Shown piece by piece: positions 40,199 through 46,871 of a DNA stretch of 64,000 nt. The stretch is from an uncultured Methylomirabilota bacterium. GTDB lineage: Bacteria; Methylomirabilota; Methylomirabilia; Methylomirabilales; 2-02-FULL-66-22. The stretch covers positions 3,104,001-3,168,000 of the forward strand of contig OY970067.1 of the NCBI GenBank assembly GCA_963705305.1, given 5' to 3'. Position 1 is the stretch's first letter. Each line of letters opens with the position of its first letter. Below the pieces are notes generated by a model. It was not told the origin of the DNA. It ran no database searches and saw nothing but the letters and a program-made list of their open reading frames with translations. The translations under genes were made by a program, and so were the position numbers.

Positions 40199-40359
40199 GT
40201 GTCCTCCTGTGTGGGGACCTTCGGGTGTTGGGTCGGGCCGCCGACCTGCGGCCTTGCCGGCCGAAGGGATTAGCAACAACCGGGGGCGATCTCCGGTAGT
40301 GTCTCAGTTTGAATCCGGGCCCCCTGTTCGGGTCGGTCGGGACGTGCTATACTCTCAGC

Positions 40360-40593
40360 ATGCCAAGAGGACCGCAAGGCCAAAGACGACCGGCCGACGT
40401 GATCGGAGCCGCCATCAAGGTGGCGAAGATCGCAACCGGGGAGATTGAGGACACCACGGGGCTGGAGGGGAAAGAATACGCCAGCCGAGGAGGAAAAATA
40501 GGGGGGCCAGCGCGGGCGAAGAAACTCTCCGCTAAAAGGCGTATCCTGATTGCACGGAAGGCCGCAAGATCAAGGTGGAGGAAATCTAGATAG
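40360..40593 (+). CDS. Small basic IS-associated protein (KGG-like motif)
   Basis: MPRGPQGQRRPADVIGAAIKVAKIATGEIED..RGGKIGGPARAKKLS..IARKAARSRW; TGnTATACT just upstream suggests a leaderless transcript. Confidence 0.8.
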   Translation: MPRGPQGQRRPADVIGAAIKVAKIATGEIEDTTGLEGKEYASRGGKIGGPARAKKLSAKRRILIARKAARSRWRKSR

Positions 40594-40900
40594 ACAGAGG
40601 AACTACCTCCTTCGATCCCACCGGTTCTGGAATCGGTCCATATTTTTCTTCGTAGGCTTTTATCAGCCTCTCAATCAAGTGGGAGAATACCTTTGCGTGT
40701 TGGGGTGAAATATAGATGCATATTTCTTCCTGAACCTTCACCTTCTCTGGAGTCGATTCAAGCACTTGACCAAATTGGATCGCGAAATCCCAAGGCGTAA
40801 TCGTAATTGAGGTGTTATTCGCGTAGACAACGGGCCTTGGATCCTTTCGTACGGTATTGATCTTTCTTACTTTCTGCGCCGCCTTCTTTGGAGTTGGCAT
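40586..40900 (-). CDS. DUF3467-like protein
   Basis: YANN..ITPWDFAIQFG..ISPQHAKVF..YEEKYGPI pattern; RBS AGGAG; starts 1 nt after the HTH gene stop. Confidence 0.75.
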   Translation of the reverse strand: MPTPKKAAQKVRKINTVRKDPRPVVYANNTSITITPWDFAIQFGQVLESTPEKVKVQEEICIYISPQHAKVFSHLIERLIKAYEEKYGPIPEPVGSKEVVPLSI

Positions 40901-40901
40901 C

Positions 40902-41459
40902 TCAAACTCCTGTAGATTGAGAGAAGGGTGTTGATTCATATGTGTAGGCCATGCTCTTGCCCATCGGACGAATTTGTGCATGGTACCTATGGGTAGGAGT
41001 TGAAAGTCGAGCCTTCGACTGACTTGTTAGAGTCGTATTCGCAGTGATACTGGGTGGTATCGCCGGAGCCGCTGCTACCACCGGAACTCGGATCTCCACG
41101 TTGAGGAACGTCGGATCTTGCTCAAAGGTCGGCTTAATAAGCGCGCGCTTACTAAAGCCCTCTATTTCCGCTAAGGCCTCCCCAAACGATACGAACTTCA
41201 CGGAAAGAACCACTTCCAGGGCTTTTGCGATGGATTTAAGGGTGCTTATGTTCCATTTTGAATAGTTTACGTTTTCGTATTTCGATACACCTGATTGCTT
41301 CGTTCCGATCAGTTTGGCGAGTTGAGCCTGAGTTAAATTTCTCGCGTCTCGCAATGCTTTAATTTGTGCGGCAAGAGCCGAGTCCAAGAACTCCTCTACG
41401 TAAGCATTCCGGTATTCCTCGTCTCGAAATTCTTTAATTAGATCACGCCGGCCGGGCAT
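40902..41459 (-). CDS. XRE-family HTH protein (HigA-like antitoxin) with long S/T/P-rich C-terminal tail
   Basis: QIKALRDARNLTQAQLAKLIGTKQSGVSKYEN..STLKSIAKAL; RBS AAGGAGG. Confidence 0.85.
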   Translation of the reverse strand: MPGRRDLIKEFRDEEYRNAYVEEFLDSALAAQIKALRDARNLTQAQLAKLIGTKQSGVSKYENVNYSKWNISTLKSIAKALEVVLSVKFVSFGEALAEIEGFSKRALIKPTFEQDPTFLNVEIRVPVVAAAPAIPPSITANTTLTSQSKARLSTPTHRYHAQIRPMGKSMAYTYESTPFSQSTGV

Positions 41460-41829
41460 ATACCCTCCTTCTGTTTGGATCGGCCGCGATTTGTTGCCTC
41501 CTCTGTTCAGCGAGTAATGGAGCGTTGGACGGGACCAGTTTCCAATTTTCTTCTCTGGCTCGGCACAACACCGTAATCCCGTCAGGCGGGTCAACAGATA
41601 CCATCGGACGAAGACGTATTATTTCTCCAATTTGCAGTTTGAAAATATGCGGCGTTTTATACTTTTTCCCTGCTCCCACGATGATTCCGGGGAGATCGTT
41701 CACATCATCGACCTGGAGTAGCATCCTGGTTTTTGTATCGAGCTGAGCTCGCTGTTTCTTCTGGAGATGGTCCCTCCAATCGGTTAGCTCCCATGTCCCA
41801 TTATCGTGTACGAATTCGAAAATTATCAC
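41443..41829 (-). CDS. Putative RelE/HigB-like toxin (divergent)
   Basis: ~128 aa, overlaps the HTH start; IFEFVHDNG..DW..L.KKQRAQLD..HIFKLQIG..RLRPM pattern; start codon uncertain. Confidence 0.55.
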   Translation of the reverse strand: MIIFEFVHDNGTWELTDWRDHLQKKQRAQLDTKTRMLLQVDDVNDLPGIIVGAGKKYKTPHIFKLQIGEIIRLRPMVSVDPPDGITVLCRAREENWKLVPSNAPLLAEQRRQQIAADPNRRRVYARPA

Positions 41830-41975
41830 TTTTTTTCTATACTGGCTACATAATTTTTTTGTTATAATCGTTGTTCGGACATAACCATTGAGTATTGAAG
41901 GGGATTTTGTTATCGACCGTGACAATATCACCAAACGTAGAGCAGACGCGAAAAAATCTTGTTTAAATGAAATTA

Positions 41976-42008
41976 ATGCTTGATACTCAAGCATAATGTT
42001 CATATACT
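41976..42008 (+). promoter_or_regulatory. Transposase promoter overlapped by a palindromic operator
   Basis: ATGCTTGA-TAC-TCAAGCAT (41976-41994) overlaps TTGATA-17nt-TATACT; ATG at 42015. Confidence 0.7.
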
Positions 42009-42014
42009 ATGATC

Positions 42015-42866
42015 ATGAACAAGCTGCCGACAGAGAAGCGAATACAGATCCTCCAGATGCTCTGCGAAGGGTCTTCAATGCGCAGCATCGCCCGAATTGT
42101 CGGGGTGTCGATCAACACCGTAACCAAGCTCTTGGAGGATGCGGGGGCCGCGTGCGCGGCTTATCATGACAAGGCCGTGCGGAACCTTAAGACCGCTCGC
42201 GTTCAGTGCGATGAGATTTGGTCATTCTGCTACGCCAAGGAAAAGAACGTTCCCCAGGAGAAGCGCGGCCAGGTGGGATATGGGGACGTGTGGACCTGGA
42301 CGGCCATTGACGCGGATAACAAGCTGATGATGTCCTGGCTGGTCGGGGATCGGGACGCGGGCACGGCGACAGATTTTATCGCCGATGTGAAGGACCGCCT
42401 TGCTAGCCGCGTTCAACTCACGACGGACGGACTCAAGGCGTATTTGACCGCTGTCGAGGATGCGTTCGGAGCAGACATCGATTACGCCCAACTCGTGAAG
42501 CTCTACGGCGAAGCGCCAGAAGCGGAGAAGCGGTACAGCCCGCCCGTTTGCACGGGCACACACAAGACCCGCGTTGAGGGTCATCCCGATCCGCGCCATG
42601 TCTCTACGTCCTACGTGGAGCGCCAAAACCTAAATATGCGGATGGGGATGCGCCGATTTACTCGCCTGACCAATGCGTTTTCAAAGAAGATCGAAAACCA
42701 CTGCCACGCCCTGGCGCTGTACTTCACGTTCTACAATTTCGTGCGGATTCACAAGACGCTGAGAGTCAGCCCGGCGATGGCGGCCGGAATCGAAACCCGG
42801 CTGTGGGAGATGGCGGATATCGTGCGGCTGATCGATGAGCACGAAGCGGAAAGAAAATCAAACTGA
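42015..42866 (+). CDS. IS1-family DDE transposase
   Basis: N-terminal [37 protein letters not shown]. Confidence 0.9.
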
Positions 42867-42953
42867 GACACTACCGATTTTCCGATTGACAGGAGCGTTT
42901 TACAGGAAGTACGTTAACATCGCCTAAAAGAGAGCAAGAAGGGGTCCCAGAGC

Positions 42954-43517
42954 GTGCCCGACGAGAAGCCGCTCAGCACCGGCGAGATCGCCCGGCTTCT
43001 GCACGTCACCCGGGTCGCGGTCTTCGGTTGGATTCGCGCGGGGAAGCTCCAGGCCTACCGAATCCCAGGGGGGCATTACCGGGTTACCCGGGCGGAGTTC
43101 CGCCGGCTCGTCGCCGAATATCACATCCCCCTGGCGCTCGAACCTCCCGCTCTGCCAAGGCGCATCCTCGTGGTGGATGATGAGGCCGTGGTGCGCGAAG
43201 CGTTCGAAGCGGCCCTCACCGCGCAGGGATACCAGGTGGCTGTAGCGGCCGACGGCCGGCAAGCCCTCCGGGTGCTCCGGCGGGACCACTTCGACCTGAT
43301 CTTCCTCGATATCCTCTTGCCTGGCATCAGCGGCGCCTTCCTCCTCAAGGCTGTGAAGCGACGGGACCCCAACGCGCTCGTCGTCTTGATCACCGGCTTC
43401 CCCGATCACGACAAGACCCTGGCCGCCCTGGACTACGGGCCGGCTATGCTTTTGCGGAAGCCGATCAAGCTCGCGGACATCCAGGCAGTTCTGGAGATCG
43501 TGTTCAAGGAGTCCTAG
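42954..43517 (+). CDS. Excisionase-type HTH fused to a receiver domain
   Basis: LSTGEIARLLHV..WIRAGKLQAYRIPGGHYRV followed by ILVVDDE..FLDILLP. Confidence 0.88.
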   Translation: MPDEKPLSTGEIARLLHVTRVAVFGWIRAGKLQAYRIPGGHYRVTRAEFRRLVAEYHIPLALEPPALPRRILVVDDEAVVREAFEAALTAQGYQVAVAADGRQALRVLRRDHFDLIFLDILLPGISGAFLLKAVKRRDPNALVVLITGFPDHDKTLAALDYGPAMLLRKPIKLADIQAVLEIVFKES

Positions 43518-43574: not shown

Positions 43575-46500
43575 GTGAGGACGGAAGAAACCAGGGTCTC
43601 TCCTGCGCCTGCCGCCGAGCCCGCCCGGCCCGATGAGCGCATGGAGAAACGCGTGAGGCGCCACTGGCTCTCGCGGCTGCGCATCCGCTTGCTCGTTCTC
43701 GTCCTCCTCGCCGTGGTGCCGGCCGCGGGCGTGATCCTCTACGCGGGGTGGGAGGGGCGCGACCAGGCCACCCTCCGGGCCCAGGCGGATCTCCAGCGGC
43801 AGGCGCGCCTGGCGGCCAGCCAGGGCGGGCCCCTGCTCGAGGGGGCCCGGGAGCTGCTCCACGCCCTCGTCGTGCTCCCCCCGGTGCAGCAGGGGGACGC
43901 CCAGGCCTGCAGCGCCCTGTTCAACACCCTCCTCGCGCAGTACCCCCAGTACGCCAATCTCGGCGTGAGCCGGGCCAACGGCAACGTCTTCTGCAGCGCC
44001 CTCGCACTGCCGGGCCCGGTGAGCCTCGCCGATCGCGGCTACTTCCGCCGGGCCCGGGCCGACCGCACCTTCGCCGTGGGCAGGTACCAAGTGGGCCGCA
44101 TCACCGGCCGGCCCGGCCTCAACTTCGGCCTCCCCGTGGTCGCGCCGGCCGGGACGGTCGCGGGGGTGGCCTTCGCGGCCCTGGACCTCGCGTGGCTCAA
44201 CGCGCTCGTGGCGCGACTGGAGCTGCCGCCGGGGACCACCCTCACCATCCTGGACCGGCAGGGAGTGCTCCTGGCCCGCGGCGAGGGGGCCGGCGCCGCC
44301 ACCGACCTGGACGGCACGCCGAGCCTCGTGGCCTTCGCGCCCCTGGGCGCGCCGGCCGCGCCCAGGGGGGTCTTCGTGAGTATCGGCGTCCCCCAGGCGC
44401 TGGTGGTGGCGGCGGCCAACCGGCTCCTCCGCCGCAGCCTCATCTGGCTGGGGGTCGTCGCCGTCCTGGCGCTCGCCGTGGCCTGGACGGGGGGCGACCT
44501 CTTCCTCCTGCGCCAGATCCAGGCGCTCCTCGCCGCCGCCCGGCGCCTGGCCGCGGGGGACCTCCGCGCCCGGAGCGGGCTGCCGGCGGGGCCGGGGGAG
44601 CTGTACCAGTTGGCCCGCGCCTTTGACGAGATGGCCGCGGCCCTGGAGGACCGGATCACCGCGCACGAACGGGCCCTGGCCGACATCGAGAGCCTGGCGC
44701 GGTTCCCCGGCGAGGACCCCAATCCCGTCCTGCGGATCCGGGAAGACGGGGCCCTGCTGTACGCCAACGAGCCCAGCGGCCCGCTCCTCCGGCTGTGGGG
44801 GATCGCCCCCGGCGGGCCGGTCCCGGCGGAGTGGGGGGTGAAAGTCCGGCAGGCCCTGGAGACAGGCGGCCAAGAGACCATAGAGCTCCTCTGCGGCGAT
44901 CGGATCTATTCGATCGACCTAACGCCCGTCTCGGCGACCCGGTACGTGAACCTCTACGGCCGGGACGTCACCGATCGCAGGCTGGCGGAGGAGACGCTGC
45001 AGCTGCGGACCCGGCAGCTCGAGACGGTCCGGGCGGTGACTGCGGAGATCACCCGCGAGCTGGACCTGACGGCGGTGCTCCTGCTCATCAGCCAACGGGC
45101 CGCGGAGCTGGCGGGGGTGGGCTTGACCACCGTCTGGTTGTGGGACGAGGCCAGCCAGACCCTGGCCCCGGGGGCGTCGTACGGCATGGGGGACTGGATG
45201 GGGAACCGGCGCCTCCGGCTAGGAGAGGGGGTCTCGGGTATCGCCGCCCAGCGGCGCGAGGGGCTCATCGTCAACGACTACCGGACTTGGCCGGCCCGCG
45301 ACCCACGGGTGATCGACCACAGCGGGGTCACCGCCATGCTCGCCGAGCCCCTGCTCTACCGGGACCAGCTCTTGGGCGTCATCCGCCTCGCCGACCAGGG
45401 GACCGGGCGGCAGTTCACAGCCGAGGACCAGGCGATGCTCCGGCTCTTCGCCGCCCAGGCCGCCATTGCCATCGAGAACGCCCGGCTGTTCCAGGGAGAG
45501 CTGAGGCGGTGGAGCCAGCTCGAGGCCATGCGCGCGGCGGGGCTGGAACTCATCCGGGAATTAGATCTTTCCGTTCTCCTCGACCTGATCCTGCACCGCG
45601 CCATGGAGCCATTGGGAAGCCAGAGCGGAACAGTATTCTTGTGGGATGAGGAGGCCCAGGTCCTTGTGCCGGCGACCTGGGTGGGGTTTGATGAGCGGCG
45701 GCACGCAGATCGCCTCCGCCTCGGCGAGGGGGTGGCCGGGACGGTGGCGCAGCGGCGGGCAGGGATGATCGTCAACGACTTCCGCACCTCTCCCTACGCG
45801 CGCTCGACCATCTTGGCGCGGACCCAGATCGCCTCCGTTCTCGCTGAGCCGCTCCTGTACCGAGAGCGGCTGGTGGGTGTGATCATCGTCAACCGTGAGA
45901 CGGGCCAGCCAGCCTTTGTGGAAGAGGAGCTGAAACTGCTCACCCTCTTTGCCCCGCTTGCCGCCACGGCCATTGAGAACGCACAGCTGTACGAGGACAC
46001 CCGTCGTCACGCCGCTGACCTCGAGGAGCGGGTGGCTGCCCGCACGGCGGAGCTCGCGGCGGCCAACGAGGAGCTCGCCGCCGCCTCCCGGCACAAGTCC
46101 GAGTTCCTCGCGAACATGTCCCACGAGCTCCGGACCCCCCTGAACGGGATCCTCGGCTTCGCCCAGATCCTCCAGGAGCAGGCGGGGCCCGCCCTGTCGG
46201 AGAAGCAGCGCCGCTACCTGGGCCACATCTACGGGAGCGGCCAGCACCTCCTCACCCTCATCAACGACATCCTCGACCTCGCGAAGGTGGAGGCGGGGAA
46301 GATCGCCCTCCAGCCCGAGCCCCTCCCGGTGGCCCAGACTCTGGAGGACCTCCTCGTCATCGCCCGGGGCCTGGCCAGCGAGAAGGGGCAGGTCCTCACG
46401 GCCGCCATTGCCCCCGACCTCCCCCCCCTCACGGCCGACCCCGTCCGGGTCAAGCAGATCCTGTTCAACCTCCTCTCGAACGCCGTGAAGTTCACCCCCG

Positions 46501-46871
46501 AGCAGGGCACCATCACCCTCACCGCCCGCGCGCTCGCAGAGGCGCCAGGGCGCGGAGACGCCGAGACAGCGGGTGATACGCGAGACACCTCACCCCAGCT
46601 CCCCGGCACCCCAGCTCCCCGGCAGTTCCTCGAACTCGCCGTGACCGACACCGGGGTCGGCATCAAGGCGGGGGACCTCCCCAAGCTCTTCCACGAGTTC
46701 ACCCAGCTCGAGACCACCCGTACGCAGGCGCACGAGGGCACCGGCCTTGGCCTCGCCCTCACCAAGCGCCTGGTCGAGCTCCACGGCGGCCGGATCTGGG
46801 CCGCCTCCCCGGGCGAGGGCCAGGGGAGCACCTTCACGGTGGTCCTGCCCCTGGGAGGGTTTCCCGCATGA
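43575..46871 (+). CDS. Sensor histidine kinase Cache-HAMP-PAS-GAF-GAF-HisKA-HATPase
   Basis: Two TMs around a Cache-like region, HAMP, GAF repeats, FLANMSHELRTPLN, NAVKF, GTGLGL. Confidence 0.92.
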   Translation: MRTEETRVSPAPAAEPARPDERMEKRVRRHWLSRLRIRLLVLVLLAVVPAAGVILYAGWEGRDQATLRAQADLQRQARLAASQGGPLLEGARELLHALVVLPPVQQGDAQACSALFNTLLAQYPQYANLGVSRANGNVFCSALALPGPVSLADRGYFRRARADRTFAVGRYQVGRITGRPGLNFGLPVVAPAGTVAGVAFAALDLAWLNALVARLELPPGTTLTILDRQGVLLARGEGAGAATDLDGTPSLVAFAPLGAPAAPRGVFVSIGVPQALVVAAANRLLRRSLIWLGVVAVLALAVAWTGGDLFLLRQIQALLAAARRLAAGDLRARSGLPAGPGELYQLARAFDEMAAALEDRITAHERALADIESLARFPGEDPNPVLRIREDGALLYANEPSGPLLRLWGIAPGGPVPAEWGVKVRQALETGGQETIELLCGDRIYSIDLTPVSATRYVNLYGRDVTDRRLAEETLQLRTRQLETVRAVTAEITRELDLTAVLLLISQRAAELAGVGLTTVWLWDEASQTLAPGASYGMGDWMGNRRLRLGEGVSGIAAQRREGLIVNDYRTWPARDPRVIDHSGVTAMLAEPLLYRDQLLGVIRLADQGTGRQFTAEDQAMLRLFAAQAAIAIENARLFQGELRRWSQLEAMRAAGLELIRELDLSVLLDLILHRAMEPLGSQSGTVFLWDEEAQVLVPATWVGFDERRHADRLRLGEGVAGTVAQRRAGMIVNDFRTSPYARSTILARTQIASVLAEPLLYRERLVGVIIVNRETGQPAFVEEELKLLTLFAPLAATAIENAQLYEDTRRHAADLEERVAARTAELAAANEELAAASRHKSEFLANMSHELRTPLNGILGFAQILQEQAGPALSEKQRRYLGHIYGSGQHLLTLINDILDLAKVEAGKIALQPEPLPVAQTLEDLLVIARGLASEKGQVLTAAIAPDLPPLTADPVRVKQILFNLLSNAVKFTPEQGTITLTARALAEAPGRGDAETAGDTRDTSPQLPGTPAPRQFLELAVTDTGVGIKAGDLPKLFHEFTQLETTRTQAHEGTGLGLALTKRLVELHGGRIWAASPGEGQGSTFTVVLPLGGFPA

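Follow-up and report, generated by a model that had tools for sequence, protein, structure and literature searches.

Both toxin-antitoxin pairs on transposons and tripartite toxin-antitoxin modules are already known. Insertion sequences (ISs) of the IS1 family typically have GGnnnTG ends and leave target duplications of 8-9 bp, and long IS1-family members with passenger genes are included in ISfinder. In this study, we analyse a window of 64,000 nucleotides, meaning the whole stretch of DNA from an uncultured Methylomirabilota bacterium (contig OY970067.1, positions 3,104,001 to 3,168,000), and report an element at positions 40295-42875 of it (2581 bp, with the ends taken at GGTAGTG... on both sides). 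It is very probably an IS1-family IS combined with a HigBA-type toxin-antitoxin pair. The third gene of the same operon encodes a DUF3467 protein, which is probably an accessory of the pair. The whole reading that we favour, though we give it slightly less than an even chance, is a transporter IS of the IS1 family with tripartite HigBA-type cargo, in which DUF3467 acts on the antitoxin through its C-terminal tail.

Among described tripartite modules, the toxin-antitoxin-chaperone (TAC) system from Mycobacterium tuberculosis, HigB1-HigA1-SecB(TA) (Rv1955-1957), has the same order of toxin, antitoxin and third gene, and its toxin falls in the same HigB subclass as the first gene of our operon (gene 1). 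Its antitoxin is likewise a helix-turn-helix (HTH) protein with a C-terminal extension variable in length and sequence, as described in the accessible part of PMC5105189. TAC systems are able to act in phage defence, the chaperone being the sensor, and HigC senses the lambda protein gpV, according to the accessible part of 10.1101/2024.02.24.581848. The window locus differs from TAC in its third protein, a DUF3467 member of about 100 aa that has a predicted beta-beta-beta-alpha arrangement and shows no SecB likeness in Pfam or in the structure matches listed. Moreover, TAC joins one chaperone family to several toxin-antitoxin families, whereas here one toxin-antitoxin family is joined to several unrelated third genes. 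On Tn3-family transposons, HigBA-type pairs share both families with our pair, Gp49 (PF05973) for the toxin and HTH_37 (PF13744) for the antitoxin; they too place the toxin first and run divergently from the transposition gene ('<A <T tnpR> tnpA>') and have been proposed to take part in stable transposon invasion, as far as the accessible text of PMC7157771 goes. Unlike these, the carrier of the window type is an IS1-family element of 2.5-4.1 kb, with a third gene and a tailed antitoxin. The HigBA of Streptococcus pneumoniae (PDB 6af3/6af4) provides the top structural match to gene 1, over 109 of 118 residues, but it is only 15% identical and belongs to a two-gene module.

The element in the window is bounded by a left terminal inverted repeat (GGTAGTGTCTCAGTTTGA, 40295-40312) and a right one (42858-42875) that overlaps the transposase stop codon; the perfect inverted repeat as detected measures 19 nt (40294-40312 and 42858-42876), with 18 nt within the chosen ends. 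Five genes make up its content, namely a small basic open reading frame (ORF), gene 3, gene 2, gene 1 and the transposase gene. The transposase (42009-42866, plus strand, 285 aa) is a single-ORF DDE transposase assigned to the IS1 family from Pfam, NCBIfam and its plasmid relatives: it marginally passes the Pfam family DDE_Tnp_IS1 (PF03400; 25.3 bits against a cut-off of 24.1), matches the NCBIfam IS1 model NF033558 with E 3.5e-19 at 69.5 bits, which is under the equivalog cut-off of 100, and is 62-68% identical to plasmid proteins of cultured Alphaproteobacteria annotated 'IS1 family transposase'. The G+C content is 51.3% for the whole IS and 47.8% for the three-gene operon, against 68.8% and 68.7% for the 10-kb flanks. 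The IS is single-copy in the 5.65-Mb host genome, where the sole further match to it is a segment of 342 nt, 71% identical, inside the transposase gene.

The same five-gene layout is found at two metagenome contigs (L003 and L004) and in a genome of the same genus (L035, genome G017), and in all four close copies, the window included, all five genes lie between inverted repeats. In L003 the transposase frame is broken into two ORFs (142 + 135 aa; L003:4992-5855), while the cargo genes are intact. The GGTAGTG... ends recur in L003, L035, L067, L069, L090 and L112. Exact 8-bp target duplications flank the copies in L003 and L035 (CGGCCGCC and ACAAGCCG). When inverted repeats were searched with exact seeds of at least 12 nt around the 30 transposase-bearing loci of the survey described below, flanking pairs were found in nine; in the remaining 21, which may have imperfect repeats, no such exact seed was present. 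As printed, the 8-bp flanks are identical in L067, L069, L090 and L112, whose elements measure 3.05-4.08 kb, and those of L113 and L118 become identical too when the repeat is started at GGTAGTG. In all, six relatives have 8-bp duplications as printed, or eight when L113 and L118 are counted. Relatives of the IS have moved as whole units, leaving 8-bp target duplications.

The operon is read from the minus strand in the order gene 1, gene 2, gene 3. The first two genes share 17 nt (41443-41459), one nucleotide (40901) lies between genes 2 and 3, and ribosome-binding sites precede gene 2 (AGGAGG) and gene 3 (AGGAG). The original prediction, made from the letters of the window, had described three tightly coupled minus-strand genes, AT-richer than the host, lying inside the inverted repeats of an IS1-family element that spreads them, and all of these points are borne out, the spread by the six to eight insertions with target-site duplications. 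Its proposed order of toxin, antitoxin and third gene recurs in L003, L004 and L035, and the trio co-occurs both there and in the DUF3467-type loci of the survey. It had regarded the RelE-like toxin as its weakest link; this part is now much strengthened, as shown next.

Gene 1 (41443-41829, minus strand) encodes a protein of 128 aa with a GTG start that agrees with the N-termini of its homologues, and is assigned as a HigB-type (Gp49-like) toxin of the RelE/ParE superfamily. As a single protein it gives nothing beyond chance-level rows in Pfam (E<=0.1), NCBIfam, PADLOC and the PDB sequences, and no match in the plasmid collection. An index of 5.8 billion proteins returned three relatives, plus the window ORF itself read from an upstream start. 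The profile search among 1.84 billion representatives finds 239 proteins at E<=1e-3, 81 of them with E<=1e-10, and five of 104 aligned family members match Pfam Gp49 (PF05973), with a best E of 9.7e-10. An AlphaFold model built on the 104-member family alignment has a pLDDT of 95.4. The top Foldseek rows for this model are the HigB of S. pneumoniae (TM 0.70/0.74, probability 1.0) and HigB1 of M. tuberculosis; in VIA-align, it matches the former (6af4) with Z 14.1 and a root-mean-square deviation (rmsd) of 2.2 Å over 109 residues, and the latter (7awk), the mycobacterial TAC toxin, which is thus among the nearest solved relatives, with Z 11.8 and an rmsd of 2.6 Å over 108 residues. The next matches are Cami1, E. 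coli HigB, RelE, YoeB and ParE, at Z 8.7-5.6. On the whole, 72 of 339 chains reach Z>=5, and among the matches listed almost all are RelE, HigB, YoeB or ParE toxins. Because the model matches HigB toxins, the toxin call is sound, and by its predicted structure gene 1 has the HigB (Gp49-type) fold of the RelE superfamily, in the long HigB subclass. The residues R74, E93, K64 and R121, near-invariant across the family, are kept. Two candidates met in these searches were discarded: the PADLOC rows for Cas6b, which concern genes 1 and 3, are at chance level, and a weak row for the ATP synthase epsilon subunit, obtained with the family profile of gene 1 against solved structures, was taken as chance.

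Gene 2 (40902-41459, minus strand) encodes an XRE/HigA-type antitoxin of 185 aa. It matches the Pfam family HTH_3 (E 1.3e-11, 44.8 bits, cut-off 23) and also HTH_37 (PF13744; 29.2 bits, cut-off 27), while HTH_31 is likewise over its cut-off. The protein consists of an N-terminal helix and an HTH domain (residues 1 to about 90), a conserved segment to about residue 120, and a hypervariable tail (residues 121-185). Among its homologues, conservation stops at a DPxF motif near residue 118, and the tails downstream are unalignable in 28 relatives, even between modules of the DUF3467 type; nevertheless, almost every homologue has a tail some tens of residues long. The tail of gene 2 (65 aa) consists of S, T, P and A to 49%, against 25% in residues 1-120, in accordance with the XRE antitoxin with an S/T/P/A-rich tail of about 65 aa that had been predicted, and it carries Y159, Y172, Y174 and F179. 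Judged from the sequences, this extension resembles the variable chaperone-addiction (ChAD) region of TAC antitoxins in presence and in sequence variability, and a ChAD function is putative.

Gene 3 (40586-40900, minus strand, 104 aa) is a DUF3467 protein with a conserved tight coupling to gene 2. Its assignment is based on PF11950, which it matches over profile positions 15-90 of 92 (53.3 bits, cut-off 25, E 3e-14). The start is set by homologues beginning MPxPKK, and the N-terminus is basic (MPTPKKAAQKVRK). An AlphaFold model (pLDDT 83) has strands at residues 29-34, 39-49 and 54-64 and a helix of 22 residues at 66-87, so that the fold is predicted as a small beta-beta-beta-alpha unit. As a single sequence, gene 3 finds chance-level rows alone among solved structures and nothing in NCBIfam, and ESM Atlas gives unnamed clusters with a best score of 0.81. 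In the host genome (98.9% complete), no match to SecB was found at E<=0.01.

To give an overall view of this family, loci were collected by a scan with the gene-2 alignment, taking one genome per species; 146 loci were confirmed and 80 kept. Among the 80 loci, 79 have a gene-2 ORF and 72 a gene-1 relative, and the latter is located upstream in 71 of the 79 gene-2-bearing loci. An IS1-type transposase gene lies upstream and divergent in 30 of the 80. DUF3467 is found directly downstream and co-directional in 21 of the 79, a count that is made of 17 Pfam matches (13 exceed the cut-off) among 77 ORFs scanned and four found by a custom hidden Markov model. A protein of about 220 aa fills the third slot more often, in 34 of the 79 (for example L049:4574-5218, L055:4549-5223, L058:4511-5176 and L067:4579-5241, with 30 more loci). 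A DUF6941 protein occupies it in one locus (L059:4421-4828, E 1.5e-10), and in 23 of the 79 there is another small ORF, nothing, or the contig end. In L087 and L112 the slot holds other uncharacterised proteins, about 132-135 aa. The proposal that DUF3467 takes the place of SecB in a TAC-like operon is too narrow: the occupants of the slot vary, and the protein of about 220 aa is the commoner one. This latter family is without matches in Pfam, NCBIfam, PADLOC and the PDB sequences, and has only unnamed clusters in ESM Atlas; its C-terminus has the conserved motif F.FER....PF.ENRYYS.APL.T..H...L.ELE. A relation to DUF3467 was considered and rejected (hhalign probability 0.24%), so the two are unrelated. 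A transposase is nearby in 11 of the 21 DUF3467-type modules, 13 of the 34 of the 220-aa type and 6 of the 24 others, including the DUF6941 locus.

A quick maximum-likelihood tree was made from the conserved part of gene 2 with 76 rows, leaving out seven that matched under 80 profile positions; many of its forks are unresolved. On this tree a minimum of 11 changes between the DUF3467 and 220-aa labels is required, and on the well-supported branches alone there are at least six changes of the DUF3467 label and at least three of the 220-aa label. As far as the antitoxin sequences indicate, the third gene has switched repeatedly. The length of the antitoxin extension also differs with the slot: beyond the HTH the median is 117 aa for modules of the DUF3467 type and 91 aa for those of the 220-aa type, against just 1-13 aa in five full-length loci (L121 and four from Legionella) that have the toxin but no coupled gene downstream. 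Where the antitoxin is tailed, the slot is always occupied by a small co-directional gene.

These counts bear on the question whether gene 3 belongs to the pair at all. The toxin and antitoxin may be an ordinary two-component HigBA addiction module, with gene 3 as independent cargo of unrelated cellular role, as might be supposed from the Gp49/HTH_37 pairs that function as two-gene modules on Tn3-family transposons (the accessible part of PMC7157771) and from the fact that DUF3467 is widespread without toxin-antitoxin genes. We consider this quite improbable, since the coupling of 1 nt in the window is matched by spacings from an 8-nt overlap to a 52-nt gap in the 21 further modules, the trio persists without a transposase within 4 kb in 10 of these 21, and the slot is never empty where the antitoxin is tailed. 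We prefer the reading of DUF3467 as an accessory of the pair. As a more specific step, it is tentatively suggested, by analogy with TAC, that DUF3467 works through the antitoxin tail.

Several observations weigh against this reading, some on the accessory and its tail, others on the window copy itself. In Pfam, gene 3 has solely PF11950 at E<=0.1 and no signal of SecB (PF02556), and in a structure comparison with 48,161 chains SecB is absent among the best 50 of the 240 chains with Z>=2; the SecB-like fold that the original prediction had proposed to look for is thus found neither by Pfam nor in the structure-search matches listed. Foldseek gives no match for the gene-3 model at E<=1e-3. The fold matches that do appear in the structure comparison are weak, with COMM domains at Z 5.4-4.9, Pur-alpha at Z 4.8 and PC4 at Z 4.0, all in the range that the tool calls common for simple arrangements. 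Folds of the COMM, Pur-alpha and PC4 types are nucleic-acid binders or oligomer builders. On the model there is no support for kinship with SecB, and the predicted fold fits a nucleic-acid-binding or oligomerising unit equally well. In the phylum, DUF3467 occurs in 34 of 251 genomes (a tally that includes the window genome and the unpublished G217), and a neighbour like gene 1 or gene 2 is present in 0 of the 29 other loci, contrary to the expected RelE-XRE pairs in DUF3467 neighbourhoods. Instead, the Pfam neighbours (28 loci, 93 ORFs) are glycosyltransferases, sigma-54 activators, an M4 protease with emfourin, papain-like proteases and others. Because none of the 29 loci is linked, the DUF3467 family is not generally a toxin-antitoxin partner, and the IS-borne DUF3467 is a recruitment of the family. 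The contrast between tailed and tail-less antitoxins is suggestive but no independent test, because the tail-less antitoxins are distant relatives and phylogeny confounds the comparison. As for the window copy, it is without a clean target duplication (flanks CGATCTCC and GATTTTCC), and two positions of its toxin are unusual: position 78 is S, against C in 99 of 104 relatives, and position 80 is D, against G in 96 of 104. Because these two residues depart from a near-invariant C and G, this toxin copy may be weakened or attenuated. The toxin alleles of L003 and L035 retain C78 and G80. Among the 104 aligned members it is the sole one with S at position 78 and the sole one with D at position 80.

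The fold matches lead to another explanation, that DUF3467 is a nucleic-acid-binding accessory of the PC4/Pur-alpha type, acting as co-regulator of the operon or transposase promoter or as binder of the toxin's RNA substrate, and not as a chaperone of the tail. The gene-3 model with its three-stranded sheet and one long helix, the matches just given to Pur-alpha and PC4 together with Sub1 and BPSL1147 (Z 3.9-4.0, PC4 included) and the PC4 homologue of phage T5 (Z 3.2), and the basic N-terminus are all in line with it, as is the position of a DUF3467 gene downstream of a LexA-type repressor gene on an Anoxybacillus plasmid. We judge it rather unlikely nonetheless: every Z is below the level where a shared simple arrangement is common, COMM domains, which are not nucleic-acid binders, score equal or better, and it leaves unexplained why long tails occur only where a third gene follows. 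For the action on the tail that we prefer, complex predictions with two DUF3467 chains and residues 88-185 of gene 2, made without controls, gave 0.07, 0.38 and 0.15 against a mark of 0.32 and weigh neither for nor against it.

In the mechanism that we propose, the toxin would be a ribosome-dependent mRNA endonuclease, which the antitoxin would neutralise via its N-terminal helix and HTH domain. The antitoxin would also repress the divergent control region, which the operon shares with the transposase gene, and with it perhaps the promoter of the transposase. DUF3467 might stabilise or guard the hypervariable tail of the antitoxin, like the SecB-like chaperone of TAC, and the toxin would then be set free when the element is lost or when some trigger titrates DUF3467; the benefit to the IS would be addiction. 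A phage-defence role of the trio is conceivable, and the third gene could serve such cassettes as a novel helper or sensor. A still wider scheme, which we regard as unlikely, is that DUF3467, the protein of about 220 aa and perhaps DUF6941 are interchangeable guard or sensor modules that hold a HigA-type antitoxin by its tail, as a SecB-independent counterpart of TAC that IS1-family elements have moved from phylum to phylum; a phage or stress protein that displaced the guard would fire the toxin, in the way that HigC senses lambda gpV.

In the literature covered, from which most subscription papers and ISfinder are absent, we found no relevant account of DUF3467, no mention of ISMhu11, and, among the papers listed, no description of IS1-family elements with toxin-antitoxin cargo. 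If confirmed, our results would make IS1-family ISs regular carriers of toxin-antitoxin genes across Acidobacteriota, Desulfobacterota-type and other phyla, and would extend the idea of toxin-antitoxin pairs as a part of transposition modules, so far attached to the Tn3 family, to simple insertion sequences. They would likewise define a family of tripartite HigBA modules whose third slot is taken by unrelated uncharacterised proteins and whose antitoxin tail is freely variable, give DUF3467 its first testable role, and imply that chaperone or sensor addiction is not bound to SecB.

We then turn to the rest of the element. Between the toxin operon and the transposase gene lies the divergent control region (41830-42008, 179 bp), with a G+C content of 31.8%. 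It contains a promoter-like site directed at the transposase gene (41980-42008; 10 of 12 positions match). Upstream of gene 1, the aligned DNA from the window, L003 and L004 shares a conserved block, ATTATAACAAAAAAAT...AAAGTG. At the other end of the IS, the small basic ORF (40360-40593, plus strand, 77 aa), with the motif GGxxGGPARAxxLSxxRR...ARW, is convergent with the operon and overlaps the end of gene 3 by 8 nt. It belongs to no Pfam family, and is kept in L003, L004, L035 and 6 of 80 further loci. A homologue of it on a Mesorhizobium loti plasmid (L131:1078-1287; 51% identity over 51 aa, E 2e-5), which is annotated 'histone H1', occupies the corresponding place in a related IS1-family element. 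The small basic ORF may be a backbone gene of this IS group and not cargo.

It might also be thought that gene 3, and perhaps this small basic ORF, serve the transposition of the IS, as a factor for target choice or end binding, given that all four close copies hold the five genes within the inverted repeats and that relatives with other cargo still keep the small basic ORF at the end of the IS. This reading is very improbable, since unrelated proteins replace the third gene without a change in transposase type, and the DUF3467-type trios without a nearby transposase noted above speak in the same direction.

Two further IS1-family elements with cargo, on plasmids of M. loti (CP050295) and Acidiphilium multivorum (NZ_CP041717) and with transposases 62-68% identical to that of the window, are alike in having a cargo operon divergent from the transposase gene, and the former has the homologous small basic ORF at its far end; they differ in that neither HigB nor DUF3467 is present in the cargo. 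The M. loti cargo (L131:1284-2879) consists of an XRE-HTH/M78 (IrrE-like) peptidase protein and an uncharacterised protein of 159 aa, and that of Acidiphilium (L130:1755-2893) of an SDH/ClpP-like serine protease and an uncharacterised protein of 68 aa. A RES/Xre toxin-antitoxin pair adjoins the Acidiphilium element.

For DUF3467 outside the elements, chromosomal copies lie beside sigma-54 activators in L021, L027 and L031, beside pairs of M4 protease and emfourin in L022 and L023, and beside papain-like proteases in L021, L024 and L025, and in other lineages the gene is repeatedly found beside GT4 glycosyltransferases. One contig of one phylum genome has four DUF3467 genes in about 30 kb (G191:C6:7724-38054), and another phylum genome has two in tandem (L016:896-1773). 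On the Anoxybacillus plasmid (L129:2735-4364), where the LexA-type repressor gene is directly upstream of DUF3467 in a prophage-like stretch, the DUF3467 gene is followed by genes for a hypothetical protein, a DUF2283 protein and a recombinase. Finally, the window IS lies upstream of a response-regulator gene (HTH_17 and receiver; 42954-43517) that begins 78 bp past it and precedes a large gene for a sensor histidine kinase (43575-46871), and the insertion may have an effect on the promoter of these two genes.

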